Source of the DNA: Spirochaetia bacterium
Lineage (GTDB): Bacteria; Spirochaetota; Spirochaetia; SP-2023
Assembly: GCA_965225855.1 (NCBI GenBank)
Contig: CBDDCK010000005.1
Span: 1,152,001 to 1,216,000, forward strand
Length of the DNA: 64,000 nucleotides
Direction of reading: 5' to 3'
In this document: positions 3,865 to 63,869 of the stretch, in pieces
Numbering within the stretch: the stretch's first letter is position 1
Layout of the letters: each line of letters begins with the position of its first letter
Notes under the pieces: generated by a model
Told to the model about the DNA's origin: nothing
What the model saw: only the letters and a program-made list of their open reading frames with translations
The model's database searches: none
Program-made: the position numbers and the translations under genes

Positions 3865-3972
3865 CTGCTAGAGTTTAGATAGTCTGGGTAACTATCAAAA
3901 CTCTAGCAGCGGTGCTGTACTGCACTCATAACCACCTTACAGCACCGCTGCTAGCCGTCTAAAGCCTGTAAT
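3865..3972. repeat. Double-hairpin element distal to lipoprotein cassette 1
   Basis: Overlapping hairpins 3865-3909 and 3903-3954. Reverse-complement copy at 63768-63869. Confidence 0.8.
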
Positions 3973-4072
3973 CCAATTCGGCTTCAAGTTTTTTTGTTCT
4001 TTTTAGCTTGGTTGTTTCAGCCTTTGGCTATATTGGCTTCCCGTATTTACCAAGGCTATAATTGGCAAAAGC

Positions 4073-4184
4073 AGCCTTAATAAAAAAATTTACAGCCTTA
4101 ATAAAAAAATTTGTAGCCTTGACAAAAAAATTTACAGCCTTGACAAAAAAATTTGTAGCCTTAATAAATTTTTTCCAGCCTTGG
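4073..4184. repeat. 21-bp tandem repeat with A7 tracts (AGCCTT-A/G-A-T/C-AAAAAAATTT-AC/GT), ~5 units
   Basis: AGCCTT starts at 4073, 4094, 4115, 4136, 4157 and 4177. Confidence 0.85.
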
Positions 4185-4289
4185 TATTTTCTCCATACCA
4201 AGGTTATAATTGGCAAAAGCAACCACGATAAAAAAACTTACCAAGGCTGCAATTGGCCAATGCAAGCGTTGCAACAACCAAACCCTACC

Positions 4290-6110
4290 TTACCAATTTA
4301 CAACGTTAATAGCATTTTTTAGGTCTGCAGGACTACCCATTACAAATCCTGCTGCTGCTTCCAGGTTGTATGCACCAGCATTATCACGAAGACCAACCTT
4401 AACCAGTATCTTATTGACTTCCGCTTTTACACTACTGCTTAAAGTAATCGTTACGCCTATTGCATTTGCATCAGAACCTGTGGCTGTGTTTTCACCTGCA
4501 GCTGCGTGCTGGGGTAATGGGTATCTCTTACTACCATCACCGGATACAAGCGTCAATTTGCTAAAGTCCCAGCCTGCAACTGCTGTCGGTAACCTGCTAC
4601 CTCTAATACGTAACAGGCCTGTGTTAACATTGTAGTATGCTTCAGCGATAGAACTTGCATACCCACTAACGGTAATCGGGTTATTGCTTATGTCTGCTGC
4701 GCTACCACCTGCAAATCCTGCTGCTGCTTCCAGGTTGTATGCACCAGCATCATCACTATCACCATTCTTAACCAATATCTTATTGGCTTTAAATGGTTCA
4801 CTACCCGTTAAAGTAATCGTTAAGCTTGTTGCACTTGCTGCAGAACCTGTGGCTGAAAATGGGTTGTGATCGGGTAATGGGTATCTCTTCTTACCATCAC
4901 CGGATACAAACCTCAATTTGCTAAAGTCCCACTCTTCAACTGTCTCCGGTAAATTAGTACCTGTAATCACTAACACGCCTGTAACAGCATTGTAGCTTGC
5001 ACTGGTAATTGTGGGTGGGTGTCCACTAACGGCCAAGCCTTTGGCTGTATTTAAACCCGCCCAAGCACCAGTGCTAGTAAGCAACCCATCTTTTAGACCA
5101 TTGCTATCCATACCGTCCTTGGCCTCAAGAGTAGTTTTATCGGCATCGGTAAGGTAAAGCCAAAGCGCTGTGCCATCGCTTTTAATACGGTACTTACCTT
5201 TTGTAAGACTGCGACTATCTGGCCCAGTGGCTGTGCCATCTGCAATATAGGAACTTAAGGCTAAGCCATCTACCGTGATGGTTTGGATTTGCGCTTGGGT
5301 CGCACTACCTAAGTCAGTACCTGTAATCACTAACACACTTGTATTAACATTGTAGGTTGCACCGGTAATTTCGGCTTTAGGCGACTCCTCTTCGACTTGT
5401 TCGACTTGTTCGACTTGTTCGACTTGTTCGTCTTGTTCGACTTGTTCGTCTTGTTCAGCTTGTTTGTCTTCAGGTTGCTTAGGCGACTCCTCTTCGGTTT
5501 CTTCGGCTTCGGGTAGTTTACGCGACTCCTCTTCAGCTTGTTCGACTTGTTCAGCTTGTTCAGCTTGTTCAGTTTGCTTAGATGGCTGATTGTCATCGGA
5601 TACTTTAGACTGCTTATTTTCGGGTACATTCCTAACGTCCAAGTCTTTGGCTGTATCTAAACCCGCCCAACTACCAGAGCTAACGCTAAGCAAGCCTTTT
5701 TTTAGACCATTGCTATCCATACCTTTCTTGCCATTCAGAGTAGCTTTATGTTGCTCGGTAAGTCTAAGCCAAAGTGCTGTGCCATCGTTTGCAATACGGT
5801 ACTTACCTTGTTCAAGACCGTTACTATTTACCCCAGTGGGTTTGGCATCTGCAGTATAGGCACTGAAGGCTACACCATTTGTTCGGCTTCCTACCCTGAT
5901 AGTTTGGATTTGCGCTTGTTTCACACTGGTAGGACTTAAGTCAGTACCTTGTACGGTTAAGATAGCCTTGCCAACATCGTAGATGGCGTTATTGATAGTC
6001 GGCCCAGAAGACGGCGCATCGTCATCGTTGTCATCGGGTGGTGCGCAGGCAAAGGCCATAAAGCCCAATAGCAAGGCTACAGGCAATAAAAATAGTTTGT
6101 GCTTATACAT
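4290..6110 (-). CDS. Surface lipoprotein, paralog family member 1 (A-linker-A'-B-B' beta-rich domains)
   Basis: GGAGGT RBS before ATG 6110, lipobox MAFAC, repeated ITxAxYNxxTGxLxIxGxxL domain starts, E/Q-rich linker. Paralogs at 20985 and 61688. Confidence 0.85.
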   Translation of the reverse strand: MYKHKLFLLPVALLLGFMAFACAPPDDNDDDAPSSGPTINNAIYDVGKAILTVQGTDLSPTSVKQAQIQTIRVGSRTNGVAFSAYTADAKPTGVNSNGLEQGKYRIANDGTALWLRLTEQHKATLNGKKGMDSNGLKKGLLSVSSGSWAGLDTAKDLDVRNVPENKQSKVSDDNQPSKQTEQAEQAEQVEQAEEESRKLPEAEETEEESPKQPEDKQAEQDEQVEQDEQVEQVEQVEQVEEESPKAEITGATYNVNTSVLVITGTDLGSATQAQIQTITVDGLALSSYIADGTATGPDSRSLTKGKYRIKSDGTALWLYLTDADKTTLEAKDGMDSNGLKDGLLTSTGAWAGLNTAKGLAVSGHPPTITSASYNAVTGVLVITGTNLPETVEEWDFSKLRFVSGDGKKRYPLPDHNPFSATGSAASATSLTITLTGSEPFKANKILVKNGDSDDAGAYNLEAAAGFAGGSAADISNNPITVSGYASSIAEAYYNVNTGLLRIRGSRLPTAVAGWDFSKLTLVSGDGSKRYPLPQHAAAGENTATGSDANAIGVTITLSSSVKAEVNKILVKVGLRDNAGAYNLEAAAGFVMGSPADLKNAINVVNW

Positions 6111-6173
6111 AAGCAATACCTCCAAGAATGGATAAAGATTAGCCAACCCATACGGGTTAGTGCATAGGGCCCT

Positions 6174-6200
6174 ATTGTGTTAGGGGGGGAATTGAGTCAA
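6174..6200 (-). promoter_or_regulatory. Putative sigma70 promoter TTGACT-N15(C7)-CACAAT
   Basis: Reverse complement reads ttgactcaattccccccctaacacaat. Same architecture at the other two paralogs. Confidence 0.55.
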
Positions 6201-6449
6201 GGTCTATATAAGATTTTTGTAAGTTTTTTTGTGTTTTGGGTACTTTTTTTGTGTTAGGGTACTTTAGCTTGGGCTATATGGGCTTCTGGGTATTTAGTTG
6301 CGGCTCTTCAAGCAAACAACTTTGGCCATACAGTGTGGATCGGGTTTGTTGGTTTGGAGTGGGGCTATTGTGGCTTTTCATTATTGATCTGCTATGGAGA
6401 CCATATAAAAAGGTATTGGGCAAAGTGAAACAAAGAAGTGAAAAACGGT

Positions 6450-6566
6450 AGGCTAACTATAAACCACTTCCAATCCCGTCAAGCACCCTCTGAAAGCACC
6501 ATAAGCAGGGCATCACGCAACAATTTGCCCAAATACCCCACATTTCATTATTCATGCCCCCTTACA
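6450..6566. repeat. Conserved upstream terminus of lipoprotein cassette 1
   Basis: Reverse complement of 61029-~61145 with few mismatches. Ends just downstream of the dnaG stop. Confidence 0.8.
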
Positions 6567-6572
6567 GGAAGG

Positions 6573-8564: not shown

Positions 8565-8724
8565 GCCTCTATTAAAGAATATAGCAAAATCCCTGCAATA
8601 TTGTTTGCGCTATTTTTCTTTTTTCTTTCGATGTTGTAAGACTTAGGTGAGACAGTAGCAGCTTAGATGCAAAGGCAGCCGCTATCTATAGCAAAATTAT
8701 AAGAAACACTATAAAATCTAAGGT

Positions 8725-12581: not shown

Positions 12582-12615
12582 AGGGTATAATAGTGATCAA
12601 AGTCGTTTTTTATGC

Positions 12616-20883: not shown

Positions 20884-20984
20884 CAAGTATTTTGGATTTT
20901 GGCAAAAGCAGCCTTGATAAAAAACTTACCAAGGCTGCTATTGGCCAATGCAAGCGCAGTTAAACAAAACCCTACTTACCCAAT

Positions 20985-22799
20985 TTAAAACTTGTATATA
21001 CTACTAGTGGTTGAGTCTTCTGGACTACCCATTGTAAATCCTGCTGCTCCTTCAAGTTTGTATTCACCATTATCATCACTATAACCAGCCTTAACCAGTA
21101 TCTTCTCGACTTCCGCTTTTATACTACCGCTTAAAGTAATCAATAATTTTTTTGTACTTGCTGTAGAACCTTCGGCTCTGTTTACACCTGCAGTTGCGTG
21201 CTGGGGTAATGTGTATCTCTTCTTACCATCACCGGATACAAGCGTCAATTTGCTAAAGTCCCACTCTGCAATTGTTGTCGGTAAACGGCCACCTCTAATC
21301 TGTAACAAGCCTGTATTAGCATTGTAGTATACTTCGTCGATATAACTTACATACCCACTAACGGTAATAGGGTTATTGCTTGTGTCTTCAGCCCTACCAC
21401 CTGCAAATCCTGCTGATGCTTCCAGGTTGTATGCACCAGTATCATCACTATCACCATTCTTAACCAATATAGCACCGGCTTTTAATTGTTCACTACCCGT
21501 TAAAGTAATCGTTAAGCTTGTTGCACTTGCTGCAGAACCTTTGACTAAATAGTTGTCCTGGGATAATGTGTATTTCTTCTTACCATCACCGGATACAAGC
21601 GTCAATTTGCTAAAGTCCCAGCCTGTAACTGCTTTTGGTAAATTAGTACCTGTAATCACTAACACGCCTGTATTAGCATTGTAGGTTGCACTGGTAATTG
21701 CGGGTGGGTGTCCACTAACGGCCAAGGCTTTGGCTGTATTTAAACCCGCCCAAGTACCAGTGCCAACGCTAAGCAACCCATCTTTTAGACCATTGCTATC
21801 CATACCTGTCTTGCCATTCAGAGTAGCTTTATGTCGATCGGTAAGGTAAAGCCAAAGCGCTGTGCCATCGCTTTTAATGCGGTATTTACCTTTTGCAAGA
21901 CCGCGACTATCTGGCCCAGTGGCTGTGGCATCTGCAATATAGGAACTTAAGGCTAAGCCATCTACCACGATAGTTTGGATTTGTGCTTGGGTCGCACTGG
22001 TAGCATTTAAGTTAGAACCTTGTAAAGTTAACAGCGCCGTGCCAACATTGTAGCTTGCACGGGTAATTGCAGCTTCTTCGGTTTCGGTCTTAGACTGCTG
22101 ATCTTCGACTTGTTCGGTTTGTTCGGCTTCGGGTAGTTCAGGCGACTGCTGTTCGACTTGTTCAGCTTGTTCGACTTGTTCGTCTTTAGGTTGCTTAGGC
22201 GACTCTTCTTCAGCTTGTTCGACTTGTTTGTCTTTAGGTTGCTTAGGCGACTCTTCTTCAGCTTGTTCGACTTGTTTGTCTTTAGGTTGCTTAGGCGACT
22301 TATCTTCGGCTTCGGTCTCAGACTGCTTATCGGGTACATTACTAACGTCCAAGTCTTTGGCTGTATTTAAACCCGCCCAAGCACCAGAGCCAACGCTAAG
22401 CAACCCTTTTTTTAGACCATTGCTATCCATACCTTTCTTGCCATTCAGAGTAGCTTTATGTCGATCGGTAAGTTTCAGCCAAAGCGCTGTGCCATCGCTT
22501 TTAATACGGTACTTACCTTTTGCAAGACTGCGACTATCTGGCCCAGTGGCTGGGTCATCTGCAGTATAGGAATCTAAGGCTACACCATCTACTACGATGG
22601 TTTGGATTTGGGCTTCTGTAGGACTTAAGTTAGAACCTTGTACGGTTAACAGAGCCGTAGCAAAGTCGTAGATGGCGTTATTGATAGTCGACTTAGACGG
22701 CCCAGAAGACGGCGCATCGTCATCGGGTGGTGCGCAGGCCAAGGCCATAAAGGCCAGTAGCAATGCTACTGGCAATAAAAATAGTTTGAGCTTATACAT
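20985..22799 (-). CDS. Surface lipoprotein, paralog family member 2
   Basis: Same RBS, lipobox (MALAC) and domain layout as 4290-6110. Linker has 3x48-bp repeats (~22161-22298). Confidence 0.85.
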   Translation of the reverse strand: MYKLKLFLLPVALLLAFMALACAPPDDDAPSSGPSKSTINNAIYDFATALLTVQGSNLSPTEAQIQTIVVDGVALDSYTADDPATGPDSRSLAKGKYRIKSDGTALWLKLTDRHKATLNGKKGMDSNGLKKGLLSVGSGAWAGLNTAKDLDVSNVPDKQSETEAEDKSPKQPKDKQVEQAEEESPKQPKDKQVEQAEEESPKQPKDEQVEQAEQVEQQSPELPEAEQTEQVEDQQSKTETEEAAITRASYNVGTALLTLQGSNLNATSATQAQIQTIVVDGLALSSYIADATATGPDSRGLAKGKYRIKSDGTALWLYLTDRHKATLNGKTGMDSNGLKDGLLSVGTGTWAGLNTAKALAVSGHPPAITSATYNANTGVLVITGTNLPKAVTGWDFSKLTLVSGDGKKKYTLSQDNYLVKGSAASATSLTITLTGSEQLKAGAILVKNGDSDDTGAYNLEASAGFAGGRAEDTSNNPITVSGYVSYIDEVYYNANTGLLQIRGGRLPTTIAEWDFSKLTLVSGDGKKRYTLPQHATAGVNRAEGSTASTKKLLITLSGSIKAEVEKILVKAGYSDDNGEYKLEGAAGFTMGSPEDSTTSSIYKF

Positions 22800-22862
22800 A
22801 AGCAATACCTCCAAAAATGGATAAAGATTGGCCAACCCATACGGGCTAGTCTGTAAATCCCT

Positions 22863-22889
22863 ATTTTGCTAGGGGGGGTGTTGCGTCAA
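22863..22889 (-). promoter_or_regulatory. Putative sigma70 promoter TTGACG-N15(C7)-CAAAAT
   Basis: Reverse complement reads ttgacgcaacaccccccctagcaaaat, identical to 61598-61624. Confidence 0.55.
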
Positions 22890-23270
22890 GGCCCATATAA
22901 GCTTTTTGTAAGTTTTTTTGTGCTTTTTTTATGTTTGGGGCACTTTTTTTGTGTGTTAGTGTTGTTTTTTAGTGTTGTAAGGTAGTTAAAAATCCATGCC
23001 AATCAAAAGGCTTGTGGGTGTTGAAATCAAAAGGCTTAAGGGCCTTTGTTTGGCCTTTGGGGTGGGAAAGTGTAGAATTGAATAAAATACTTGATTACAC
23101 TTCGATTACACTATGGGGCAATCTCCAAAAGGTGAAACATTTAATGAAAATGAAAACAGGATATTATTCTTTCAGGGGCGTTCAGAATTTGGGCAACGAT
23201 TGCCGATGATTGTTGTATAGGTCGTGGATTATGTGCCGATGTAGAAAATTTCATTAAAGACTAGGGTATT

Positions 23271-23392
23271 AATAGGTGGGAGGTAATTCTATTGATAGAT
23301 TTAGGTCAATTCTATCAATAGGTGCGAGGTAAATCTATTGATAGAATTAGGTCGATTCTATTATATAGGTGAGAGGTAATTCTATTGATAGA
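23271..23392. repeat. Array of alternating 23-bp imperfect palindromes (46-47-bp period, ~2.6 units)
   Basis: aataggtgggaggtaattctatt / gatagatttaggtcaattctatc repeated from 23271, 23317 and 23364. Confidence 0.8.
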
Positions 23393-23887
23393 GGGGGCTG
23401 GGGTATTTATTTATCGGTATTGTTCTGCTTTAGCCTTAGCTAAAATTTCTTTTACCAGCCTATCATTAATAATCGTTTGGCTATGTTTTAGGGTTTTTTA
23501 TCTGAAGCCCTTTCGCCTTTACCTTGCGGCTCTTCTGGATATATACCGAAAGCGCTTTGCGCAAACAACTTTGGCCATACAGTGTTGATCGGGTTTGTTG
23601 CTTTGGGGTGTTGGGTGGGGCTGGGGCAGTTATTGGGTGGGGGGCTATTGTTGCTTTTTAATTATTTATCTGCTATGGAGACGATATAAGTGAGCAGACT
23701 AAATTAGAGCTATCCCAAGAAAGCTAAAGAAGAAACGAAACGCCTAGAAGTATTTACTAAAGTAACTCATCGTTAGCTTACAGAGGACAAAATAAATGCC
23801 ATACATGAGCCCAAATGCTGCAAATATTCAAACCAGAAGACAAGACTAAGACAAGGCTTATTTTCTAGGCGATACAATAATTGAAAG

Positions 23888-28271: not shown

Positions 28272-29113
28272 TATGATATACCAATCGCAGAATAAGGCAA
28301 TAGTTGTAAGTGCATCTTAAAACTCATTCCCCAGTATCGCCAATGGTAGCCATCATCTTTGGTTAGCAACAATAAATGGGGCTTATGCTGGCTGGATTCT
28401 GTCTTATTTTCTAACAAGCTTTGCAAACGGTGGTAAACGCCGGCAACGGAATCTACCAATTTTATATTTGAGTCAGAATCGAGGCCAGATGCTTGTAGTT
28501 GAGAACGCAATTGCTCTTTCACATGCAAGAAGTGAGTACAGCCCAAAACAACTTGGTCGGCACCAGAATCTAGTATCGGCTGGATAAAAGGGGCTATCGC
28601 TTGTGCTGCTGCTTTTGTTGCATCTTTTGTTAGTGCGGCCGGGCCCGGCCGCCAATGTTGTTCAATAAATTCGATCAAACTAGCAGCGTTGATAGCCTCC
28701 AGCTTACAGTCTGTGGCAAACTGCTTGTGCAGCTTGGCAACATAATCGGCTTGACTGGTACTACGCGAAGCGAGCATGGCAATTTTGCGACTTTTGGAGG
28801 CTGCGGCTGCGGGCTTTATGGCCGGAACAGTGCCTATAAATTGTTTTTGCGGAAAGCGATAACGAAGTTCATCTAAAGCCAATACAGTTGCGGTGTTGCA
28901 CAGCAATAATACCAGCCGGCAAGGGTAGCGGGATAAAGCCAAAGCAATTACTTGGCAAATGCGTTCTCGCAGTTGGCTTTGCGGTTGTTCACCAAAAGGG
29001 AAATAAGCATTGTCGGCTAGGTAAATCCAGCGCATGGGCAGTTGGCGTAAATGGTGTAAATAGGCCAAGCCACCTATACCAGAGTCAAAACAAAGAACAG
29101 TTTCCATTTCCAA
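28271..29113 (-). CDS. murI: Glutamate racemase
   Basis: FDSGIGGL, DNAYFPFG, LCNTAT, VLGCTHF. Confidence 0.95.
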   Translation of the reverse strand: MEMETVLCFDSGIGGLAYLHHLRQLPMRWIYLADNAYFPFGEQPQSQLRERICQVIALALSRYPCRLVLLLCNTATVLALDELRYRFPQKQFIGTVPAIKPAAAASKSRKIAMLASRSTSQADYVAKLHKQFATDCKLEAINAASLIEFIEQHWRPGPAALTKDATKAAAQAIAPFIQPILDSGADQVVLGCTHFLHVKEQLRSQLQASGLDSDSNIKLVDSVAGVYHRLQSLLENKTESSQHKPHLLLLTKDDGYHWRYWGMSFKMHLQLLPYSAIGIS

Positions 29114-29190
29114 GTATTATGCAGATAGCTTGTTGGTTGCCAACCCTAAAAGGGTAGGCCAAAAAACTACACAAAAAGGCTGAAGCCCGT

Positions 29191-29219
29191 TTGACAATAT
29201 GGGCTTTATGCCATATGGT
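29191..29219 (+). promoter_or_regulatory. sigma70 promoter of BspA-like gene 1
   Basis: TTGACA-17 bp-TATGGT. Duplicated at 33386-33414. Confidence 0.7.
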
Positions 29220-29249
29220 AGCCAAATTTTAACTTATAAGGAGTATTGT

Positions 29250-32200
29250 ATGAGAGTATACAATTTCTTGCCCCCGAAAATAACGGCCACTATCCTATGT
29301 GGGCTTTTGCTAGGCTTTGTGCTAGCGGCTTGCAATGCTGTGGCCCAGGCAAGGCCGCAGCATTGTGAAGCCGTTACGTACACCGCCAAGCCCCAAACTA
29401 AGGGCAAGCTCAAGGCCCTAATACGAGAGGCAATCAATAAAGATGGCCCCACCGCCAGCCTAAACCATATCGACACTTCCGCCATTAGCGATATGTCCAG
29501 ACTATTCTATGAGAGCAACTTTAATGGCGATATTCGCTGTTGGAACACCTCCAGCGTTACCAATATGCAAGGCATGTTTTCGTTTGCCGAGGCCTTTAAC
29601 CGTGATATTGGGGCTTGGGACACCTCTAAGGTTGGCAACATGGCAAATATGTTTGCCGGGGCTGCCAGCTTTAACCACGATATAAGTGCGTGGGACACGT
29701 CTAGCCTTGATAGAGGCAATAGCATGTTTACAAAATCGCCACTGCAATACCAGCCCGAATTGTGGCCTAAAAAAACCAGTGGCGTATGGCAACCACGGCG
29801 CGACCTAGAAGCTGCGATTGCCAAGGCCATTGCCAAAGATGGGCTCAACGCCAACCTCAACCATATCGACACCTCTGCCATTACGGATATGTCCTACCTA
29901 TTCTCTTCTAGTGAATTTAACGGCGATATTTCGCAATGGGACACCTCCAGCGTTACCAATATGAGCAGCATGTTTGAGGGTGCCGAGGACTTTAACCAGA
30001 CGATTGGCAACTGGGACACCTCCCGCGTTACCACTATGCAAGGCATGTTTGAGGGTGCCGAGGCCTTTAACCAGTCGATTGGCAACTGGGACACCTCTAG
30101 CGTTACCACTATGAAAAGCATGTTTGAGGGTGCCGAGGACTTTAACCAGACGATTGGCAACTGGGACACCTCCAGCGTTACCAATATGAGCAGCATGTTT
30201 GAGGGTGCCGAGGACTTTAACCAGACGATTGGCAACTGGGACACCTCCAGCGTTACCAATATGAGCAGCATGTTTGAGGGTGCCGAGGACTTTAACCAGA
30301 CGATTGGCAACTGGGACACCTCCCGCGTTACCACTATGCAAGGCATGTTTGAGGGTGCCGAGGCCTTTAACCAGTCGATTGGCAACTGGGACACCTCTAG
30401 CGTTACCACTATGAAAAGCATGTTTGAGGGTGCCGAGGACTTTAACCAGACGATTGGCAACTGGGACACCTCCAGCGTTACCAATATGAGCAGCATGTTT
30501 GAGGGTGCCTGGGCCTTTAACCAGCCGATTGGCGACTGGGACACCTCCAGCGTTACCAATATGGCAGGCATGTTTTATAGTGCCAATTATGGACCTACAG
30601 CCTTTTATGGACCTACAGCCTTTAACCAGCCAATTGGCAACTGGGACACCTCTAGCGTTACCACTATGAAAAGCATGTTTGAGGGTGCCGAGGCCTTTAA
30701 CCAGCCAATTGGCGACTGGGATACCTCTAGCGTTACCACTATGAAAAGCATGTTTGAGGGTGCCGAGGCCTTTAACCAGCCAATTGGCGACTGGGATACC
30801 TCACGCGTTACCAATATGAGCAGCATGTTCTCTAGTGCCAGGGCCTTTAACCAGCCAATTGGCGACTGGGACACCTCCAACGTTACCGATATGTGGGGCA
30901 TGTTTGCGGGTGCCGATGCCTTTAACCAGCCAATTGGCGACTGGGATACCTCACGCGTTACCAATATGGAAGGCATGTTCCGTTATGCCGATGCCTTTAA
31001 CCAGACGATTGGCAACTGGGACACCTCCAGCGTTACCGATATGCGCAGCATGTTTGAGGATGCCGTGGCTTTTAACCAGCCGATTGGCGACTGGGACACC
31101 TCTAGCATTACCGATATGTCGAGCATGTTCTATAATGCCAAGGCCTTTAACCAAGAACTAAGTAGCTGGGACACGTCTAGCCTTGATAGAGGCAATAGCA
31201 TGTTTACAAAATCGCCACTGCAATACCAGCCCGAATTGTGGCCTAAAAAAACCAGTGGCGTATGGCAACCACGGCGCGACCTAGAAGCTGCGATTGCCAA
31301 GGCCATTGCCAAAGATGGGCTCAACGCCAACCTCAACCATATCGACACCTCTGCCATTACGGATATGTCCTACCTATTCTCTTCTAGTGAATTTAACGGC
31401 GATATTTCGCAATGGGACACCTCCAGCGTTACCAATATGGAAGGCATGTTTGATAGTGCCGATGCCTTTAACCAGCCGATTGGCAACTGGGACACCTCCA
31501 GCGTTACCAATATGGAAGGCATGTTCCGTTATGCCGATGCCTTTAACCAGACGATTGGGCAATGGGACACCTCTAGCGTTACCAATATGGAAGGCATGTT
31601 CTATAATGCCGATGCCTTTAACCAGCCGATTGGCGACTGGGACACCTCTAGCGTTACCGATATGAAAGGCATGTTTGCGGGTGCCGATGCCTTTAACCAG
31701 CCGATTGGGGCTTGGGATACCTCACGCGTTACCGATATGAAAGGCATGTTTGCGGGTACCGATGCCTTTAACCAGCCGATTGGGGCTTGGGATACCTCAC
31801 GCGTTACCGATATGAAAGGCATGTTTGCGGGTGCCGATGCCTTTAACCAGCCGATTGGGGCTTGGGATACCTCACGCGTTACCGATATGCGCAGCATGTT
31901 TGATAGTGCCGATGCCTTTAACCAGCCGATTGGGGATTGGGACACCTCTAGCGTTACCACTATGAGCAGCATGTTTGCGTTTGCCAAGGCCTTTAACCAG
32001 CCGATTGGCAACTGGGACACCTCCAGCGTTACCAATATGAGCAGCATGTTTGCGGGTGAATATAATAAACCTACAGCCTTTAACCAGCCGATTGGGGCAT
32101 GGGACACCTCCAGCGTTACCACTATGCGCAGCATGTTTTTTAGTGCCGAGGCCTTTAACCAGCCGATTGGCGACTGGGATACCTCACGCGTTACCGATAT

Positions 32201-32504
32201 GTCGAGCATGTTTGCGTTTGCCAAGGCCTTTAACCAGCCGATTGGGCAATGGGACACCTCCAGCGTTACCACTATGGGGGGCATGATGGGGGGCATGTTT
32301 GCGTTTGCCTGGGCCTTTAACCAGCCGATTGGTGGTTGGGATACCTCCAGCGTTACCGATATGTCGAGCATGTTTCAGGTTGCCAAGGCCTTTAACCGTG
32401 ACCTAAGTGGCTGGGATACGTCCAGTGTTACAGAGAGTGATTATATGTTTGATAGTTCTCCACTGGGATACCAGCGCAGTAAGTGGCCTAGGGGTTTACG
32501 CTAG
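29250..32504 (+). CDS. BspA-family/DUF285 repeat surface lipoprotein 1 (three repeat modules)
   Basis: TAAGGAG RBS before ATG 29250, lipobox LAAC, many 25-aa FNQPIGxWDTSxVTxMxxMFxxAxA repeats. Confidence 0.9.
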
Positions 32505-32629
32505 GATATGCAATAGTAGCTATGTAGCTAGCAAGCGGGCGGTAGCCGGCTGGCTAGCTTTGGTGCCAAGTTGCCAAATGTCTGGACGGCCAATTTGCCA
32601 ACAGTTTACCTTTAGTTTACCTTGTAATT

Positions 32630-32859
32630 GCTATAATATATCTTTCCGCATTCGATCAAGGCCTTGATCGGCCTTGCTGTAATATAACTTTCCGCACTCG
32701 ATCAAGGTCTTGATCGGCCTTGCTATAATACCACTTTCCGCACTCGATCAAGGCCTTGATCGGCCTTGCTGTAATATAACTTTCCGCACTCGATCAAGGT
32801 CTTGATCGGCCTTGCTATAATATATCTTTCCGCACTCGATCAAGGTCTTGATCGGCCTT
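32630..32859. repeat. 5 x 46-bp tandem repeat with 18-bp palindrome CGATCAAGGCCTTGATCG
   Basis: Units start at 32630, 32676, 32722, 32768 and 32814. No unique spacers. Confidence 0.92.
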
Positions 32860-32885
32860 GATATAATGGGTGGTTACCAAGCCCG

Positions 32886-33308
32886 CTAACTTTTGCAAAT
32901 ACTTTCTGTGGCAAACTGCTTGTGCAGCTTGGCAACATAATCGGCTTGACTGGTACTACGCGAAGCGAGCATGGCAATTTTGCGCCGTTGTGATGCAGCA
33001 GCTGCGGGCTTTATGGCCGGAACAGTCCCTATAAATTGTTTTTGCGGAAAGCGATAACGAAGTTCATCTAAAGCCAATACAGTTGCGGTGTTGCACAGCA
33101 ATAATACCAGCCGGCAAGGGTAGCAGGATAAAGCCAAAGCAATTACTTGGCAAATGCGTTCTCGCAGTTGGCTTTGCGGTTGTTCACCAAAAGGGAAATA
33201 AGCATTGTCGGCTAGGTAAATCCAGCGCATGGGCAGTTGGCGTAAATGGTGTAAATAGGCCAAGCCACCTATACCAGAGTCAAAGCAAAGAACAGTTTCC
33301 ATTTCCAA
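32886..33308 (-). pseudogene. murI: 3'-truncated duplicate of murI
   Basis: 32905-33447 duplicates 28710-29252 (offset 4195). Lacks the GCTHF half. Confidence 0.9.
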
Positions 33309-33444
33309 GTATTATGCAGATAGCTTGCCAGTTGTCAACCCTAAAAGGGTAGGCCAAAAAACTACACAAAAAGGCTGAAGCCCGTTTGACAATATGGGCT
33401 TTATGCCATATGGTAGCCAAACCTTAACTTATAAGGAGTATCAT

Positions 33445-35508
33445 ATGAAACCATATAACCATAGACGCCACCCACTTAGTGGGCTACTAAATGGGCCAGT
33501 AGCTGGCTGCATAGCGGTTTTTAGCTTATATGGGGCCATAGCCCTGCTAGCTGCCTGCAATACTTTGGCCCAGTCAAGGCCACAGAATTGTGAAGCCGTT
33601 AAGTACACCGCCAAGCCCCAAACGAAGGCCGAGCTGAAGGCCTTAATTAAAGCGGCCATCAAAAAAGACGGCCACACCACCAACCTAAACTATATCGACA
33701 CCTCGGCCATTAGCGATATGGCCTACCTATTTTCTGGTAAGACAGAGTTCAATGGCGATATTCGCTGTTGGGACACGTCCAGCGTTACCACTATGCGCAG
33801 TATGTTTTATGATGCCCGTGCCTTTAACCGTGATATTGGGGCGTGGGACACCTCTAAGGTTGGCAACATGGCAAATATGTTTGCCGGGGCTGCCAGCTTT
33901 AACCACGATATAAGTGCGTGGGATACCTCGGCCGTTGGCGATATGCAGGGAATATTTGATGGTTCACCACTGGCTAAGCAGCCTAAGCTGTTGACATTGC
34001 TTTCTTGCAAGATGACACCTACGGCTAAGCCGCAAACGAAGGCCGAGCTGCAGGCCTTAATCCAAGCGGCTATGGAAAAAGATGGCCTCACCGCCAGCCT
34101 AAACCATATCGACACTTCCGCCATTAGCGATATGTCCAGACTATTCTATGAGAGCGACTTTAATGGCGATATTCGCTGTTGGAACACCTCCAGCGTTACC
34201 ACTATGTCTGAAATGTTCCGTAAGGCCGAGGCCTTTAACCAGCCAATTGGCGACTGGGACACCTCCAGCGTTACCACTATGTCTGAAATGTTCCGTAAGG
34301 CCGAGGCCTTTAACCAGCCAATTGGCGACTGGGATACCTCTAGCGTTACCAATATGCAAAAGATATTCTCTTATGCCCGTGCCTTTAACCAGCCGATTGG
34401 CAACTGGGACACCTCCAGCGTTACCACTATGTCTGAAATGTTCCGTAAGGCCGAGGCCTTTAACCAGCCAATTGGCGACTGGGATACCTCTAGCGTTACC
34501 AATATGCAAAAGATATTCTCTTATGCCCGTGCCTTTAACCAGCCGATTGGTGGTTGGGACACCTCCAGCGTTACCACTATGTCTGAAATGTTCCGTAAGG
34601 CCGAGGCCTTTAACCAGCCGATTGGCAACTGGGACACCTCCAGCGTTACCTATATGTGGGGCATGTTTTATAGTGCCGATGCCTTTAACCAGCCGATTGG
34701 TGGTTGGGACACCTCTAGCGTTACCGATATGGAAGGCATGTTCTATAATGCCCGTGCCTTTAACCAGCCGATTGGGGCTTGGGACACCTCCAGCGTTACC
34801 TATATGTGGTGGATGTTTGCGGGTGCCGTGGCCTTTAACCAGCCGATTGGCAACTGGGACACCTCCAGCGTTACCGATATGCGCAGCATGTTTGAGGATG
34901 CCGTGGCCTTTAACCAGCCGATTGGGGATTGGGATACCTCTAGCGTTACCAATATGAGCAGCATGTTTGCGGGTGCATATGATAAACCTACAGCCTTTAA
35001 CCAGCCGATTGGGGACTGGGATACCTCCAGCGTTACCGATATGCGCAGCATGTTTGAGGATGCCGTGGCCTTTAACCAGCCGATTGGGGACTGGGATACC
35101 TCCAGCGTTACCAATATGAGCAGCATGTTTGCGGGTGCATATGATAAACCTACAGCCTTTAACCAGCCGATTGGGGACTGGGATACCTCCAGCGTTACCA
35201 CTATGCGCAGCATGTTTTGGTTTGCCGAGGCCTTTAACCAGCCGATTGGGGCTTGGGACACCTCCAGCGTTACCACTATGCGCAGCATGTTTTATAGTGC
35301 TGCTGCCTTTAACCAGCCGATTTGGGCTTGGGACACCTCCAGCGTTACCACTATGGGGGGCATGTTTGAGGGTGCCGTGGCCTTTAACCGTGACCTAAGT
35401 GGCTGGGATACGTCCAGTGTTACAGAGAGTGATTATATGTTTGATAGTTCTCCACTGGGATACCAGCGCAGTAAGTGGCCTAGGCGTTTACGCTGGGGTT
35501 TACGCTAG
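33445..35508 (+). CDS. BspA-family/DUF285 repeat surface lipoprotein 2 (two repeat modules)
   Basis: TAAGGAG RBS before ATG 33445, lipobox LAAC, 25-aa repeats, C-cap nearly identical to gene 1. Confidence 0.9.
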
Positions 35509-35633
35509 GATATGCAATAGTAGCTATGTAGCTAGCAAGCGGGCGGTAGCCGGCTGGCTCGCTTTGGTGCCAAGTTGCCAAATGTCTGGACGGCCAATTT
35601 GCCAACAGTTTACCTTTAGTTTACCTTGTAATT

Positions 35634-35846
35634 GCTGTAATATAACTTTCCGCATTCGATCAAGGCCTTGATCGGCCTTGCTATAATATATCTTTCCGCA
35701 CTTGATCAAGGCCTTGATCGGCCTTGCTATAATATAACTTTCCGCACTTGATCAAGGCCTTGATCGGCCTTGCTATAATATATCTTTCCGCATTGGATCA
35801 AGGCCTTGATCGGCCTTGCTATAATATATCTTTCCGCATTCGATCG
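35634..35846. repeat. 4 full + 1 partial 46-bp palindromic repeats
   Basis: Units start at 35634, 35680, 35726, 35772 and 35818 (partial). Same consensus as the 32630 array. Confidence 0.92.
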
Positions 35847-35861
35847 TAGCCAAATTTATAG

Positions 35862-38144
35862 CTAAATCCCTATACCAATAAAATCTAGTTTAGACTGCTG
35901 AAACTCTAATTGCAGGCGGATTAAACGCCCATCGTCGAGTTTTATCATTAGCGTAGTTATATTAGCAGAGCACTTGCGTTGCACCACATACCCCAAGCCA
36001 TAGTCTAAATGCTCAACGCGAGCTCCAACCACAAATGGGTCATCTGCTTGCTTGTGTTGGATAGCTTGGGTTTTCTGTTGTTGGCGCTGTAGTTCTGCTG
36101 CCGAAAATTGTTTGCAACCCGCTAAATTCGGATTGCCAACGCTCTCTTGTTTTTGCGCTTGTTTTTGAATTTGGCTAAGGCTGCAATCCTCATAAAAGGC
36201 CTGATCTATTTCACGTAGCAAAGGCGAAGGTTCATAACTTTTACTGTTGCCATATAGTATGCGCAAACCCACAGCACTAAGGTATAATTCACTTTCGGCA
36301 CGGGTTATGGCAACATAGAATAAACGCCGTTCTTCTTCCATTTTCTGCGGGTCATCGAGTGCCTCAAGCTTGGGGAATATACCCAGCTCTAAGCCAGTAA
36401 CAAAAACCCGCTCAAACTCCAATCCTTTGGTATTGTGCATGGTAATTAAAATTGTTTGCTCTTCTTTGGTCTGCTCACTCTCGAGCTCTTCGGTTTCTAG
36501 TTCAATGCTTTCTAAGAAAGCAATTAAAGCTTGGCGGCCCCTACCATAGTGGCGCGCCTCTTCCAGCAGGCTATCAAAATTGCCACAACGCTCACTTAAT
36601 TCTTGCTCCTCTCGTTCGGTGTAATACGCCAACAAACCGCTGCGCTGTAGCACCTCCTGAATTAGCTCTAACAACAAAATACCTGTATCATGTTCATCTA
36701 GCAGCTTTTCAAGTTCCCCATAGGTTTGGAGAAATTGCTCCAAAGCATTGAGGCTGCGTTTGGCTAGGGCCTTGTGTTCCAACACTTGCTCCATTGCTTG
36801 GATAACGGTGGCCTCTCTATTTTCCGAAGCCGCATGTTCTATATTCGTTTGGATACTCTGCCAAACACGTGGCCCTAGGCCACGCTTAGGTTTGTTGTAG
36901 ATACGTTCTAGTGCTACTACATCACGCGGATTGGCCAAGCATTTTAAATAGGCTACAATATCTTTAACTTCTTCGCGGCGATAAAAGCTCAAGTTACCCA
37001 CCAATTTATAGGGAATATTCCATTGACGCAAAACCCGTTCAAAGGTACGCGACTGGGCATTGGTACGGTATAAAATAGCCGTATGCTGGGGCTTCTGCCG
37101 AATGCGTTGGGCAATGAATACGGCTTCGTCCTCGCAACTTGCAAATAAATGAAACTGTGGCAAACTGCCTCCGCTTTTGGTGGGACGCAATATTTTCCCC
37201 AAGCGTTTATGATTGTGCTGAATTACTTGGTTGGCCAATTCCAAAATAGGGGCACAAGAACGGTAGTTCTGTTCTAGTTTCAATATCTTAGCAGGCGCAA
37301 AATTCTTATGGAACTCTAAGATATGGCTCACCTGTGCACCACGAAAGCCATAGATAGATTGGTCTTCATCACCGACAATACAAAGTTCTTGGCCTTTTCG
37401 CCCCAGCAACAAGTGCAACAAGCGGTCTTGCAAAGGGTTGGAATCCTGATATTCATCTACTAAAATTCGGCAAAACCGTTGTTGCACTTGCGATTGCGCT
37501 TGCGCTTGTAGATGGGAATCTTGCTCAAGTAGTTGCACCGAAAGACCTAGCAAGTCGGCAAAATCGGCATTGCCAATCCGCTGTAAAGCCTGTTGGTACA
37601 AACAAAATGCTTCATAAAAGTCCGGTTCGCTACTAAAGCGTTCTAACTGTTCTTTTAAATCCTCTGAATCCTTTTGATAATAGCCCAAACCACAATCCTT
37701 AGCTTTGGCTATTAGCCGCTGCAGTTGCTTGGCTCTATTTCTACAACTAGGCCAAGCTTGTTTTAAAAGAGCTTGGGAGTCATCATCATCATAAATGGTA
37801 AAATTTGGCACCAGTCCGGCAGCTTGAGCATTGCGCCGCAGTAACCAGGCACCAAAAGCATGGAATGTACGGATTAACACTTGCTGGCTTTGTTCGGCAC
37901 TTAAACCATCGGTGATGAAACCAGCAGCTAAGCGTTCACGCATTTCGCGCACAGCGCGGTTGGTAAACGTTACTGCTAAAATCTTATATGGTGGAATATT
38001 TTGTTCTAAAATATGGTGGATTATACGGGCAATTACCACACGTGTTTTGCCCGAACCAGCCCCAGCATGCACCAGTAGATTAGAGCCATGATGATAAACA
38101 CACGCAAGCTGTTCTTGGTTTAAGTTGTCTAAATAAGATTTCAT
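35862..38144 (-). CDS. uvrD: UvrD/PcrA superfamily 1 DNA helicase
   Basis: AGAGSGKT, VTFTNRA, VDEYQD, VGDEDQSIYGFRGA, LEQNYRS, KGLEF, EERRLFYVAITRA. Confidence 0.95.
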   Translation of the reverse strand: MKSYLDNLNQEQLACVYHHGSNLLVHAGAGSGKTRVVIARIIHHILEQNIPPYKILAVTFTNRAVREMRERLAAGFITDGLSAEQSQQVLIRTFHAFGAWLLRRNAQAAGLVPNFTIYDDDDSQALLKQAWPSCRNRAKQLQRLIAKAKDCGLGYYQKDSEDLKEQLERFSSEPDFYEAFCLYQQALQRIGNADFADLLGLSVQLLEQDSHLQAQAQSQVQQRFCRILVDEYQDSNPLQDRLLHLLLGRKGQELCIVGDEDQSIYGFRGAQVSHILEFHKNFAPAKILKLEQNYRSCAPILELANQVIQHNHKRLGKILRPTKSGGSLPQFHLFASCEDEAVFIAQRIRQKPQHTAILYRTNAQSRTFERVLRQWNIPYKLVGNLSFYRREEVKDIVAYLKCLANPRDVVALERIYNKPKRGLGPRVWQSIQTNIEHAASENREATVIQAMEQVLEHKALAKRSLNALEQFLQTYGELEKLLDEHDTGILLLELIQEVLQRSGLLAYYTEREEQELSERCGNFDSLLEEARHYGRGRQALIAFLESIELETEELESEQTKEEQTILITMHNTKGLEFERVFVTGLELGIFPKLEALDDPQKMEEERRLFYVAITRAESELYLSAVGLRILYGNSKSYEPSPLLREIDQAFYEDCSLSQIQKQAQKQESVGNPNLAGCKQFSAAELQRQQQKTQAIQHKQADDPFVVGARVEHLDYGLGYVVQRKCSANITTLMIKLDDGRLIRLQLEFQQSKLDFIGIGI

Positions 38145-57214: not shown

Positions 57215-57225
57215 TAAGTATTACC

Positions 57226-58557: not shown

Positions 58558-58608
58558 AAAAACTGATTCCGCTCATTCTTAAATCATTATTTTTTGTAAA
58601 TCAAAAAT

Positions 58609-59691: not shown

Positions 59692-59715
59692 TGAAAAACT
59701 CCGATAATAACTGTT

Positions 59716-60705: not shown

Positions 60706-61028
60706 ACTCCCACTCCTTCAAACAACAAAAGAATATTTTTCACAGCACTTTAAAGCCAATTCTATTCATTGTCAATATTGGGCAAGATAAACCAGTCAAG
60801 ATAGACCAGTATCGGTCAATAATAAAAAGCTTAAAATATCTATTCAAAAAAATCTCGCATGGATACCCCCAAGGCTTTGGCTAGTTTATCCAACACCATT
60901 AACGTTGGAATTTTCTTTTTGTGTTCAATGTAAAACAAGTAACTGTGGGCTATTCCAGATTCTATAGAGTGCACCATCTAATACACCCTGTTGTAACTCT
61001 ATAGAGATTATGGGAGTTATATAATAGG

Positions 61029-61145
61029 TGTAAGGGGGCGTGAAGAATGAAATGTGGGGTATTTGGGCAAATTGTTGCGTGATGCCCTGCTTATGGGGCT
61101 TTCAGAGGGTGCTTGACGGGATTTGAAGTGGTTTATAGTTGGCCT
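61029..61145. repeat. Conserved upstream terminus of lipoprotein cassette 3 (starts TGTAAGGGGGCG)
   Basis: Reverse complement of ~6450-6566. Confidence 0.8.
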
Positions 61146-61597
61146 TCCGCTTTTAACTTCGCCTGTTTTCGCCTTGGTTCTTCTATAGATTAAAAAATTT
61201 CTACCCCAACCTTTTTATAAAGTCCAGGGCAAGGAAAAATCAAATATGGGTTGTTGTTCATTTTTGTTTTTCTCTTTGGTTTGGTATGAATCCCTCTGCC
61301 ACCCCCAACCAAAACCCCACCCCCCAAACCTTCACAGCAAAAACCAAACCATGCCCTAATTATGTACTTTTGAAAAGGAACAATTATGGACTAGGTCGGT
61401 CCATAGTTATCGACTTGTTGCGTCTATAACTATGGATTGGTTGCTTTGATGGTTTATAGATTCAACTAATATTCAATGCAAATGAATTGGCATGGATTTT
61501 GAACCACCTTACAACACTAAAACACAAATAAGACACAAAAAAAGTGCCCAAACATAAAAAAAGCACAAAAAAACTTACAAAAAGCCTTATAAAGGCC

Positions 61598-61624
61598 TTG
61601 ACGCAACACCCCCCCTAGCAAAAT
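61598..61624 (+). promoter_or_regulatory. Putative sigma70 promoter TTGACG-N15(C7)-CAAAAT
   Basis: ttgacgcaacaccccccctagcaaaat, ending 64 nt upstream of ATG 61688. Confidence 0.55.
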
Positions 61625-61687
61625 GGGGCACTGTACACTAGCCCGTATGGGTTGGCTAATCTTTATCCATTTTTGGAGGTATTGCTT

Positions 61688-63406
61688 ATGTATAAGCTCA
61701 AACTACTTTTATTGCCTGTAGCATTGCTACTGGCCTTTATGGCCTTGGCCTGCGCCCCACCCGATGACGATGATGCGCCGTCTTCTGGGCCGACTATCAA
61801 TAACGCCATCTACGATGTTGGCAAGGCTCTGTTAACCGTACAAGGTACTGACTTAAGTCCTACAGAAGCGCAAATCCAAACCATCGTAGTAGATGGGGTA
61901 GCCTTAAGTTCCTATACTGCAGATGACCCAGCCACTGGGCCAGATAGTAGCAGTCTTGCAAAAGGTAAGTACCGTATTGCAAACGATGGCACAGCGCTTT
62001 GGCTTAGACTTACCGATGCCGATAAAGCTACTCTGAATGGCAAGCCCAGTATGAATAGCAATGGTCTAAAAAAGGGTAAGCTTAGCGTTGGCACTGGTAC
62101 TTGGGCGGGTTTAGATACAGCCAAAGACTTAACCGTTAGGAATATACCCGATAAGCCATCTAAACAACCTAAAGCCGAAGAGCAGTCGCTTAAGCAAACC
62201 GAAGATAAGCAGTCGCCTAAGCAAGCCGAACAAGCCAAACAAGCTGAACAAACCGAAGAAGTCGAAGATAAGCAGTCTAAGACCGAAACCGAAGATCAGT
62301 CGCTTAAGCAAGCCGAAGCTGCAATTACCCGTGCAACCTACCATGTTGGCACGGCGCTGTTAACTGTACAAGGTTCTAACTTAAGTCCTACCAGTGCGAC
62401 CCAAGCGCAAATCCAAACTATCGTGGTAGATGGCTTAGCCTTAAGTTCCTATATTGCAGATGCCACAGCCACTGGGGCAGATAGTCGCGGTCTTGCAAAA
62501 GGTAAGTACCGTATGAAAAGCGATGGCACAGCGCTTTGGCTTTACCTTACCGATCAACATAAAGCTACTCTGAATGGCAAGACAGGTATGGATAGCAATG
62601 GTCTAAAAGATGGGTTGCTTAGCGTTGGCACTGGTGCTTGGGCGGGTTTAGATACAGCCAAAGCCTTGGCCGTTAGTGGTAACCCCGCAATTACCCGTGC
62701 AAGCTACCATGTTACTACAGGCTGGTTAGTAATTACAGGTACTAATTTACCAGCAGCAGTTGCAGGCTGGGACTTTAGAAAATTGACGCTTGTATCCGGT
62801 GATCGTACTAATAGATTCACATTACCCCGGCACTCACACTCAATTTTAGTTGAAAACAGAGCCAAAGGTTCTGTAGCAAGTGCAACAAGCTTAACGATTA
62901 CTTTAAGAGGTAGTGTAAAAGCCAAAGCCGATGCTATATTGGTTAACGATGGTGTTCGTGATGCTAATGGTGCATACAACCTGGAAGCAGCAGCAGGATT
63001 TGCCGGTGGTAGCGCTGAAGACACAACCAACCCTATTACCGTTAGTGGGTATACCATCATCAGCGCAACCTACGAAGCTGATACAGGCGAGTTAACTATT
63101 TTCGGTAGCGGTTTACCGACAACAATTGCAGAGTGGGACTTTAGCAAATTGACGATTGTATCCGATGATGGTAAGAAGAGATTGACATTACCCCAGCACT
63201 CAACTGTAGGTAAAAACAGAGCCACAGGTACTGTAGCAGCTATAAACGGCTTAAAGATTACTTTAAGGGGTAGTGTAAAAGCCAATGCCGAAGCTATAAT
63301 GCAGAAGCTTTTTGTTGGTGTATACAAACTTGAAGCAGCAGCAGGATTTGTACCTGGTAGTCCAGAAGAAGCTATTCTTACTAGTTATATTAGTAGGAAT
63401 TCTTAG
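61688..63406 (+). CDS. Surface lipoprotein, paralog family member 3
   Basis: GGAGGT RBS, lipobox MALAC, same A-linker-A'-B-B' layout as members 1 and 2. Confidence 0.85.
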   Translation: MYKLKLLLLPVALLLAFMALACAPPDDDDAPSSGPTINNAIYDVGKALLTVQGTDLSPTEAQIQTIVVDGVALSSYTADDPATGPDSSSLAKGKYRIANDGTALWLRLTDADKATLNGKPSMNSNGLKKGKLSVGTGTWAGLDTAKDLTVRNIPDKPSKQPKAEEQSLKQTEDKQSPKQAEQAKQAEQTEEVEDKQSKTETEDQSLKQAEAAITRATYHVGTALLTVQGSNLSPTSATQAQIQTIVVDGLALSSYIADATATGADSRGLAKGKYRMKSDGTALWLYLTDQHKATLNGKTGMDSNGLKDGLLSVGTGAWAGLDTAKALAVSGNPAITRASYHVTTGWLVITGTNLPAAVAGWDFRKLTLVSGDRTNRFTLPRHSHSILVENRAKGSVASATSLTITLRGSVKAKADAILVNDGVRDANGAYNLEAAAGFAGGSAEDTTNPITVSGYTIISATYEADTGELTIFGSGLPTTIAEWDFSKLTIVSDDGKKRLTLPQHSTVGKNRATGTVAAINGLKITLRGSVKANAEAIMQKLFVGVYKLEAAAGFVPGSPEEAILTSYISRNS

Positions 63407-63539
63407 TAAGTAAGGTTTGGTTGTTGCGGTAAGCAATGCTTGGTTGGCCTATTGCAGCCTTGGTAAATTTTTTTATCAAGGTTGCTTTTGCCAATTATAG
63501 CCTTGGTATAAAGTATTGTTCCGCATTGGTGCAATACAT

Positions 63540-63579
63540 CTTTCCGCCTTGGATCAAGGCCTTGATCCAAGGCGGAAAG
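63540..63579. repeat. Perfect 40-bp palindrome derived from the 46-bp repeat family
   Basis: ctttccgccttggatcaagg|ccttgatccaaggcggaaag. Shares ctttccgc..gatcaaggccttgatc with the 32630/35634 arrays. Confidence 0.88.
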
Positions 63580-63767
63580 CTATATCATAGCAAGGCTAGA
63601 AAAATTTATTAAGGCTACAAACTTTTTTAGTAATAGCTTTGAACAAACCCCTTACAATAATTATTACCAGAACGTTGCCATAACCATTAAGAGAATTTCT
63701 TAATGCCTAATAAGAGAGTTTCTTAATACCTAACAAGAATTTTTTGTAACAAGATAAACTTTGGCCA

Positions 63768-63869
63768 ATTACAGGCTTTAGACGGCTAGCAGCGGTGCTG
63801 TAAGGTGGTTATATAATCGCAGTACAGCAGCGCTGCTAGAGTTTAGATAGTTACCCAGACTATCTAAAC
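63768..63869. repeat. Double-hairpin element distal to lipoprotein cassette 3
   Basis: Reverse complement of ~3872-3972 with loop variation. Confidence 0.8.

Follow-up and report, generated by a model that had tools for sequence, protein, structure and literature searches.

A 107-copy lipoprotein gene family in a spirochaete that probably spread as natural mini-Mu cassettes

Introduction

Mobile insertion cassettes (MICs) have been described as TALE-carrying units with TnXax1 ends in Xanthomonas and as MIC231 in Bacillus cereus, and the passages of that account consulted here count 55 TALE genes in Xanthomonas, 45% of them linked to ends (PMC4337579). Mini-Mu units appear, in the relevant sections of two further sources, as laboratory tools (PMC3145075, PMC8705779); the same sections of the second source attribute 6-bp duplications with TG-CA ends to B3-type and Leptospira prophages. 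In the literature searched, which was open-access and lacked most subscription papers, no natural mini-Mu unit carrying a host gene was found, and in a 2024 review of helper-dependent elements the terms 'mini-Mu' and 'transposable phage' do not occur (PMC11389934). Here, we analysed a window of 64,000 nucleotides (C5:1152001-1216000, C1-C5 being contigs) in a 2.71-Mb spirochaete genome, G000, that holds three paralogous lipoprotein genes (copies 1, 2 and 3). We put at roughly 78% the probability that these end-eroded genes belong to a 107-copy family that spread as natural mini-Mu cassettes, with the copies exchanging short tracts. The genomes compared were G003, from a sister species, and two further genomes, G001 and G002.

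A family of 107 full-length lipoprotein genes

The original prediction, made from the letters of the window alone, had placed three paralogous genes in it and expected many more copies genome-wide. The three open reading frames (ORFs) were found where predicted (606, 604 and 572 aa; 87-89% identity at aligned DNA columns), and tblastn detected 116 family loci in G000, with 114 family ORFs, 107 of them full length (at least 400 aa with a conserved start). The copies are dispersed, with a mean spacing of 25 kb on C5, and their coding parts occupy 8.3% of the genome, or 12.2% with the shared flanks. No family match was found in any of 40 relatives, three congeners included. Six family proteins encoded on other assembled contigs (P0020, P0049, P0055, P0061, P0089 and P0092) have only 76-86% identity to their best G000 copy; they may be unassembled copies or the different repertoire of a sister strain.

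A lipobox-like Cys was present in all 107 full-length ORFs under a loose pattern. The proteins consist of a signal peptide, a domain A, an acidic linker and then a variable run of A and B domains, with A-ABB (34/107), A-ABBB (19/107) and A-BBB (16/107) among the domain strings. In an AlphaFold2 model of copy 2 (mean pLDDT 75) the linker is disordered and the rest forms four beta-sandwich domains; the model's fold matches were generic Ig-like ones, those from Foldseek being generic tandem-Ig matches. The best structural match was an S-layer Ig domain of SbsC (Z 7.6, rmsd 2.9, 94 aligned), with none at Z of at least 8, and no Pfam model matched the family proteins. A single-sequence fold of domain B was discarded as too poor to use (pLDDT 46). 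In the 16 relatives scanned, domain B corresponds to an unnamed repeat of ~120 aa in giant proteins, many of which carry DUF4347, RTX or cadherin domains, at ~33-47% identity and in up to 26 stretches per protein. The family resembles these giant adhesin-like proteins in its domain-B-type repeats and differs from them in carrying two to four B domains on a lipoprotein anchor, a lineage-specific derivative (domain A) and an acidic linker. Because domain B occurs in giant adhesin-like proteins and the folds are Ig-like, the family proteins would serve as a surface adhesin or coat.

Type-1 ends and a candidate helper prophage

Mapping where flank sharing between copies stops revealed a sharp left boundary and, downstream, the same boundary inverted; a binding-site-like repeat occurs twice in each. 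These type-1 ends (TGA...TCA, with TG...CA termini) occur in G000 as 31 left and 32 right motifs. Among the full-length copies, 30 carry the left end (L1), 27 the right end (R1) and 17 both, so that 40/107 have at least one, and every assigned end faces inward. The two-ended units span 2.4-3.7 kb around a single lipoprotein ORF. Six of the 63 type-1 ends lie away from any copy, several of them at prophage ends. Perfect 6-bp target duplications flanked 5/17 two-ended copies (chance per pair 0.0014; P = 4e-11). Non-autonomous spread had been predicted, and these transposon termini, with duplications on part of the copies, bear it out.

The same ends were found on a Mu-like (B3/BcepMu-type) prophage of 36,092 bp at C5:1257675-1293766 (phrog_310, E = 1.8e-70) with terminase, portal, head, sheath, tape-measure and baseplate genes. 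The type-1 left ends correspond to its first 75-273 bp, and the right ends to its last ~50-75 bp in 25/27 copies. Its right end is intact and its left tip degenerate, and no duplication surrounds the prophage itself. The transposase is an open DDE gene (D144/D238/E274), nearest to those of Komp_PAO1_1, Bise and BcepMu, and was the only G000 match across the rve, phrog_310, rve_3, DDE_Tnp_1, Y1_Tnp and RVT_1 models (controls positive). No reverse transcriptase (RT) and no Y1/HUH, IS3-like or IS4/5-like transposase was detected in G000 with the models used, the controls again being positive. The earlier statement that the cassettes contain no mobility gene holds inside them, with the qualification that this candidate transposase lies ~57 kb past the window end. 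Motifs homologous to the type-1 ends also terminate a related prophage in G002, where they are the only two in the genome, and this independently marks the type-1 motifs as phage termini.

Several further observations concern these elements. Five type-1 left ends (C1:227251, C5:1325, 172403, 427678 and 1477305) sit at an identical position within the cassette's own upstream module and are read as one old nested insertion that later spread with its flank. Copies of the prophage right part, 97-100% identical, lie at contig ends (C4:334779-343005 and C3:1-774); there may be more than one prophage copy, with the assembly breaking there. Two tyrosine recombinases are present in G000. In G002, tandem arrays of other lipoprotein-like paralogues, one every ~1.2-1.3 kb, stand beside Mu-like prophages (G002:C1:257500-295000 and 2122000-2144000), with no type-1 motif beside them except the prophage's own two.

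Type-2 ends and a probable capture junction

A second set of ends, type 2 (TGT...ACA), was found, the left end (L2) on 4 copies and the right end (R2), whole or in part, on 17. L2, with its terminal TGT (6566 and 61029 in the window), is an imperfect inverted repeat of the R2 terminus downstream of 17 other copies. Counting either end type, some end sequence is kept in 55/107 copies and none in 52/107. The mover that the original prediction had left unnamed is a candidate pair, a transposable prophage and a probably older end family, and the left end of the latter is a block already reported as common to copies 1 and 3. That block, given as 6450-6566 and 61029-61145, extends further, 6435-6566 matching the reverse complement of 61029-61160 (94%, E = 2e-54).

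In G003, homologous type-2 ends bound a 748-bp TGT...ACA element with a 5-bp duplication, and at three loci remnants of portal/minor-head and tape-measure genes follow an L2 homologue. A 2.9-kb type-2 pair in the same genome brackets an unrelated lipoprotein, with no duplication. Type-2 ends are probably of phage origin and the older of the two sets. In two G000 copies, R2 is joined precisely at its terminal ACA to prophage position 35744, 349 bp from the prophage tip, and the final 317-348 bp of phage sequence come after it. This junction is likely a capture intermediate, in which a type-2 cassette transposed into the prophage and gained a type-1 right end.

The possibility that type-2 ends are the ends of an insertion sequence (IS) in G001 was rejected, as that IS starts ~450 bp inside. 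The unrelated lipoprotein family in G003 has eight members (G003:C1:988765-991706 and 2083200-2088094), one copy being bracketed by type-2 ends and two tandem copies lying beside L2. A third L2 in the window (1068-1164, minus strand) pairs with an inward right-type end 3.7 kb away, at G000:C5:1149479, shortly ahead of the first letter of the window. The interval holds a TPR gene, a 234-aa ORF and a 371-aa ORF that by eye resembles an HTH regulator carrying a metallopeptidase motif; it contains no transposase, and the pair has no target duplication.

Recombination among the copies

The flank sharing had been described as mosaic rather than tree-like and ascribed to a copy-and-recombine system, and recombination tests on the copies agreed, giving a strong signal. 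Incompatibility between near sites was below the permuted level in all four domain alignments (P ≤ 0.004), and linkage (r2) dropped from 0.19 to 0.05 by 11-30 bp. In the first A domain, near and far incompatibility were 0.34 vs 0.77, while the two were equal in three no-recombination simulations. Exact matches of at least 20 nt tiled a median 91% of a gene from ~25 donors (36/107 copies sampled). The three window genes were 87-97% tiled by 28-33 other copies, with the best single partner covering 51-60%. B domains were about twice as variable as A domains. The alignments show the copies to be mosaics that exchange short DNA tracts, and because of this exchange their flank sharing is not tree-like.

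The three copies in the window

Copy 1 (minus strand) has its gene at 4290..6110, encoding 606 aa with a signal peptide and lipobox Cys, a domain A, an acidic E/Q/P linker and then A, B and B; its beta-sandwich domains are predicted from the model of copy 2. The predicted promoter (6174..6200) reads TTGACT, a 15-nt spacer containing a C7 tract, and CACAAT, the -35 and -10 assignments being putative. Upstream lie a module at 6312..6408, common to copy 2 and a few further copies, and L2 at 6435..6566, whose terminal TGT at 6566 forms the outer boundary of the cassette. The tail (3873..4289) comprises family tail modules and then a double hairpin (3873-3972), and is cut just before the type-2 right end.

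The gene of copy 2 (20985..22799, minus strand; 604 aa, A-linker-A-B-B) is preceded by a predicted promoter at 22863..22889 (TTGACG, 15-nt spacer with a C7 tract, CAAAAT). Its upstream flank (22800..23884) is near-identical to that of copy C5:1974332, with a 455-nt exact match, and no transposon end was recognised in it. Downstream is a short tail of 87 nt (20898..20984) without a right end.

Copy 3 (plus strand) begins with L2 at 61029..61160, the terminal TGT at 61029 being its outer boundary. A predicted promoter at 61598..61624 (TTGACG, 15-nt spacer with a C7 tract, CAAAAT) and the gene at 61688..63406 (572 aa, A-linker-A-B-B) follow, and the tail (63407..63869) holds one 46-nt palindromic repeat unit and a double hairpin (63768-63869), with the same cut point as copy 1.

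The remaining blocks reported as shared were recovered as well: 6312-6408 with 23561-23689 (E = 2e-16), the alignment containing a net insertion of 32 nt; 22890-23004 with the reverse complement of 61486-61600; and the distal hairpin of copies 1 and 3, in which 3873-3972 matches the reverse complement of 63768-63869 (93%, E = 1e-38; predicted folding -44 and -50 kcal/mol). In six other copies the double hairpin runs straight into the type-2 right end. Type-1 ends are absent from all three window copies; copies 1 and 3 keep one type-2 end each, the left, copy 2 keeps neither type, and no target duplication was found at any of the three. They would be decayed, end-eroded members of a family resembling mobile insertion cassettes.

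A poly-C tract in the predicted promoters

Between their predicted -35 and -10 boxes, 104/107 copies carry a C tract, which is C7 in 84 of them, C6 in 18, and C8 and C9 in one each; the three window copies all have C7. Of the 139 runs of at least seven C in the genome, 88 fall in the promoter motif. With the boxes assigned by consensus only, the predicted spacer is 14, 15, 16 or 17 nt for C6, C7, C8 or C9, respectively, while housekeeping promoters in G000 have a spacer mode of 16-17 nt (12 and 6 counts, background 3-5). Four divergent long members stand apart (G000:C5:353763, 571748 and 206266, and C4:210671); the first three are candidate family founders whose promoters have 16-17-nt spacers and no C7 tract.

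These promoters invite two readings. The tract may be a conserved spacer rather than a switch, all copies being co-expressed at a low level as an S-layer-like or adhesive coat, and we regard this as a nearly even prospect. A C7 tract is short for frequent slippage, and the narrow range of tract lengths (C7 in 84/107) and the S-layer Ig domains among the best fold matches point the same way. Against it, the tract sits between the predicted -35 and -10 boxes, C8 and C9 would bring the spacer to the housekeeping mode, the divergent paralogues reach 16 or 17 nt without a tract, and the same layout, a homopolymer between -35 and -10, switches tp0126 in Treponema pallidum according to the passages describing that gene (PMC7864442). 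The other reading, that poly-C slippage switches single copies on, we hold tentatively, at somewhat worse than even odds.

Source genome, gene order and repeats

A housekeeping neighbour gene had 82-83% identity to Candidatus Haliotispira prima and one Spirochaetia genome and at most 65% to the other 78 loci listed; the organism is therefore placed, by this gene, as a spirochaete close to Ca. Haliotispira. In two sequencing runs, from the probable source sample, single-copy contigs with zero differences reach the cassette edges (to 3927, from 6520 and to 20928), so the loci are real, and the summed contig depth of the lipoprotein genes is ~100-200x that of unique DNA. An assembly artefact as the origin of the window copies was rejected on these two grounds. 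The family, in many copies, was also present in runs of a second study.

Gene order (REARRANGEMENT) was kept with G003 in 0/94 cassette-holding intervals vs 33/250 cassette-free gaps longer than 300 nt (P = 2e-5). That cassettes are the main cause of synteny loss is not claimed, the test for partners of broken adjacencies being null at four settings. Copy 1 and copy C5:1231932 split a binding-protein/permease pair, an anecdotal observation, and the cumulative GC skew of C5 is saw-toothed over the whole contig, as expected after many inversions.

The window also contains a tandem duplication at 28705-35871, whose unit comprises five 46-nt repeats, a stretch of the racemase gene and a gene with DUF285 repeats (1101 and 704 aa in the two units). 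The 46-nt repeat has a central palindrome and more than 100 BLAST matches in the genome, and is present in cassette tails; its sites include 32628-32867, 35632-35871 and 63526-63581 in the window and G000:C5:1292520-1292880 and 1264370-1264480. In the C5 prophage it has taken the place of a section of the baseplate gene, the C4 copy of which is intact. No Y1 transposase was found in G000.

Proposed course of events and alternative explanations

We propose that the gene was probably carried to new chromosomal sites by jumping bacterial viruses, in two successive waves of copying. A gene with a giant-adhesin-type repeat domain would first have come between the older phage-type ends (type 2, TGT...ACA), at whose left end window copies 1 and 3 still begin. 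The type-2 cassette would then have landed in the B3/BcepMu-type prophage 349 bp from its right tip, where the junction is observed, and later deletions would have left the gene between the prophage's own type-1 ends (TGA...TCA). The prophage DDE transposase, acting in trans, would have copied such cassettes to new intergenic sites, five of which bear 6-bp target duplications. Gene conversion and crossing-over, evident in the recombination tests, would since have shuffled coding and flank pieces and uncoupled left from right flanks, while deletions presumably removed ends. As a last and tentative step, promoter poly-C slippage might switch single copies, so that cells show different coat or adhesin variants.

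Several results weigh against this scheme. No recognisable end of either type remains on the 52 end-less copies, copy 2 among them, and their route is a matter of inference. Twelve of the 17 two-ended copies lack a target duplication, and a search for missing mates across loci gave 3 matches vs 1.4 expected, which is not significant and leaves those mates unexplained. The prophage has degenerate bases at its left terminus and split genes for portal, tape measure and baseplate. Type-2 ends in G000 all lack a duplication, L2 and R2 never occur together on a full-length copy, and the type-2 duplication is known from one G003 element, the second G003 pair having none. Neither an intact type-2 parent nor its transposase was found: the search gave none at G001:C3, one match to a strict pattern in 301 class genomes and none in IMG/VR with the pattern used. 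Halves of broken adjacencies were not enriched beside cassettes (odds ratio 0.8-1.6, P > 0.2, four settings). The pooled dN/dS values (1.35 and 1.81 for B domains, 0.83 and 0.93 for A domains) come from recombining paralogue pairs and are indicative only. No empty site was demonstrated, sister-strain contigs breaking at the repeats; at one duplication-flanked site, 34 letters of a sister-strain contig find no match where the left end should join, a pattern compatible with either an empty site or a variant end.

Some of these points would also suit a different history, in which phage ends moved only a minority of copies and most, the three window copies included, spread by recombination. Dispersed intergenic repeats, for example the 46-nt palindromic repeat, would have primed ectopic conversion or duplication, and some copies would have gained ends later. 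The large end-less share, the ragged outer boundaries of those copies, often common to only two to four of them, the ~1 kb of flank that copy 2 has in common with C5:1974332 without any end, and the pervasive recombination all speak for it. We nevertheless consider it unlikely. Homologous recombination cannot seed a new unique site without outer homology on both sides. Moreover, several end-less copies begin within phage left-end sequence, which is what erosion would leave; the terminal TGT is the precise starting point of copies 1 and 3, which stop just before R2; and the models used detected no RT, HUH or IS transposase in G000. Less likely still is runaway mini-Mu transposition with neutral variation and no selected role in surface variation, since, although engineered mini-Mu units readily amplify in a chromosome in the experiments described in part of PMC3145075 and most promoters here have a 15-nt spacer below the housekeeping mode, 107/114 family ORFs retain their full length, signal peptide and promoter, most changes in the B domains are non-synonymous and fall at specific positions, and cargo-free end pairs have not accumulated.

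If natural mini-Mu cassettes did spread the family, they explain how one gene family came to fill an eighth of a bacterial genome, and the origin of a variable surface repertoire is tied to a transposable prophage. With pieces swapped among 107 copies, the range of coat variants open to the cell would be very large. The preserved junction suggests how cargo passes from one end set to another, and the short natural ends with the transposase are a candidate genetic tool for spirochaetes. A wider interpretation, which we regard as doubtful, is that the genus repeatedly domesticated transposable-phage ends as amplification vectors for surface proteins, yielding decentralised antigenic variation. 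Under it, the gene would have passed from older to newer phage ends by jumping in and then given rise to more than 100 promoter-bearing copies, each able to act as donor and as expression site, with short-tract conversion doing the shuffling and poly-C slippage the switching, while the sister species would have put an unrelated lipoprotein between the same older ends.

Comparison with known systems

Among spirochaete systems, the family shares segmental exchange among surface-protein paralogues with Borrelia vls, as presented in the sections consulted (PMC11499132), and a homopolymer between the (predicted) -35 and -10 boxes with the poly-G phase variation of T. pallidum tpr/tp0126, in the relevant part of PMC7864442. 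Unlike the vls and tpr systems as these sections portray them, the copies are almost all complete genes with promoters of their own, scattered at intervals of about 25 kb, and the protein is unrelated. In place of one expression site with a contiguous silent array, a promoter tract was found in 104/107 copies and a signal peptide in all 107. Segmental exchange is present, and the system is not vls-type.

The helper prophage is like the B3/BcepMu-type and Leptospira prophages in the part of PMC8705779 that treats them, with a length of ~36 kb and a DDE gene beside an AAA-type gene; of its own TG...CA ends the right is intact, and 6-bp duplications accompany these ends on cassettes, though none surrounds the prophage. 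It falls in their range of 36-39 kb with a DDE transposase and head and tail genes. In contrast to such phages, the cassettes carry no phage gene, several of the helper's virion genes are defective and its left tip is degenerate. The cassettes resemble the engineered mini-Mu(LR) (PMC3145075) and mini-D3112 (PMC8705779), as far as the passages on these constructs go, in having left and right phage ends around a cargo, which in those constructs is moved and amplified by phage A/B proteins in trans and here would be. They differ in being natural, in their B3/BcepMu-type ends and in their recombining surface-protein cargo, and their transposition is deduced from footprints.

The closest likeness is to MICs, within the portion of PMC4337579 that characterises them: a passenger gene between transposon ends, no transposase inside but a cognate one elsewhere in the genome, solo ends, end-less paralogues, a target duplication at part of the copies, and a host-interaction family with variable repeat domains. 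In G000, a passenger between two inward ends was found in 17/107 copies, the three window copies not among them; the two-ended units contain no transposase, 5/17 of them have target-site duplications, and a cognate transposase with the same ends is present in trans for type 1, in prophage C5:1257675-1293766. No cognate enzyme was found for the type-2 ends. Unlike the MICs of that account, the family has ends of transposable phages rather than of Tn3 or IS231, a 6-bp rather than a 5-bp duplication, 107 dispersed copies in one chromosome, and two successive end families with a capture junction. What is new relative to MICs is the phage ends, the scale and the two-step hand-over.

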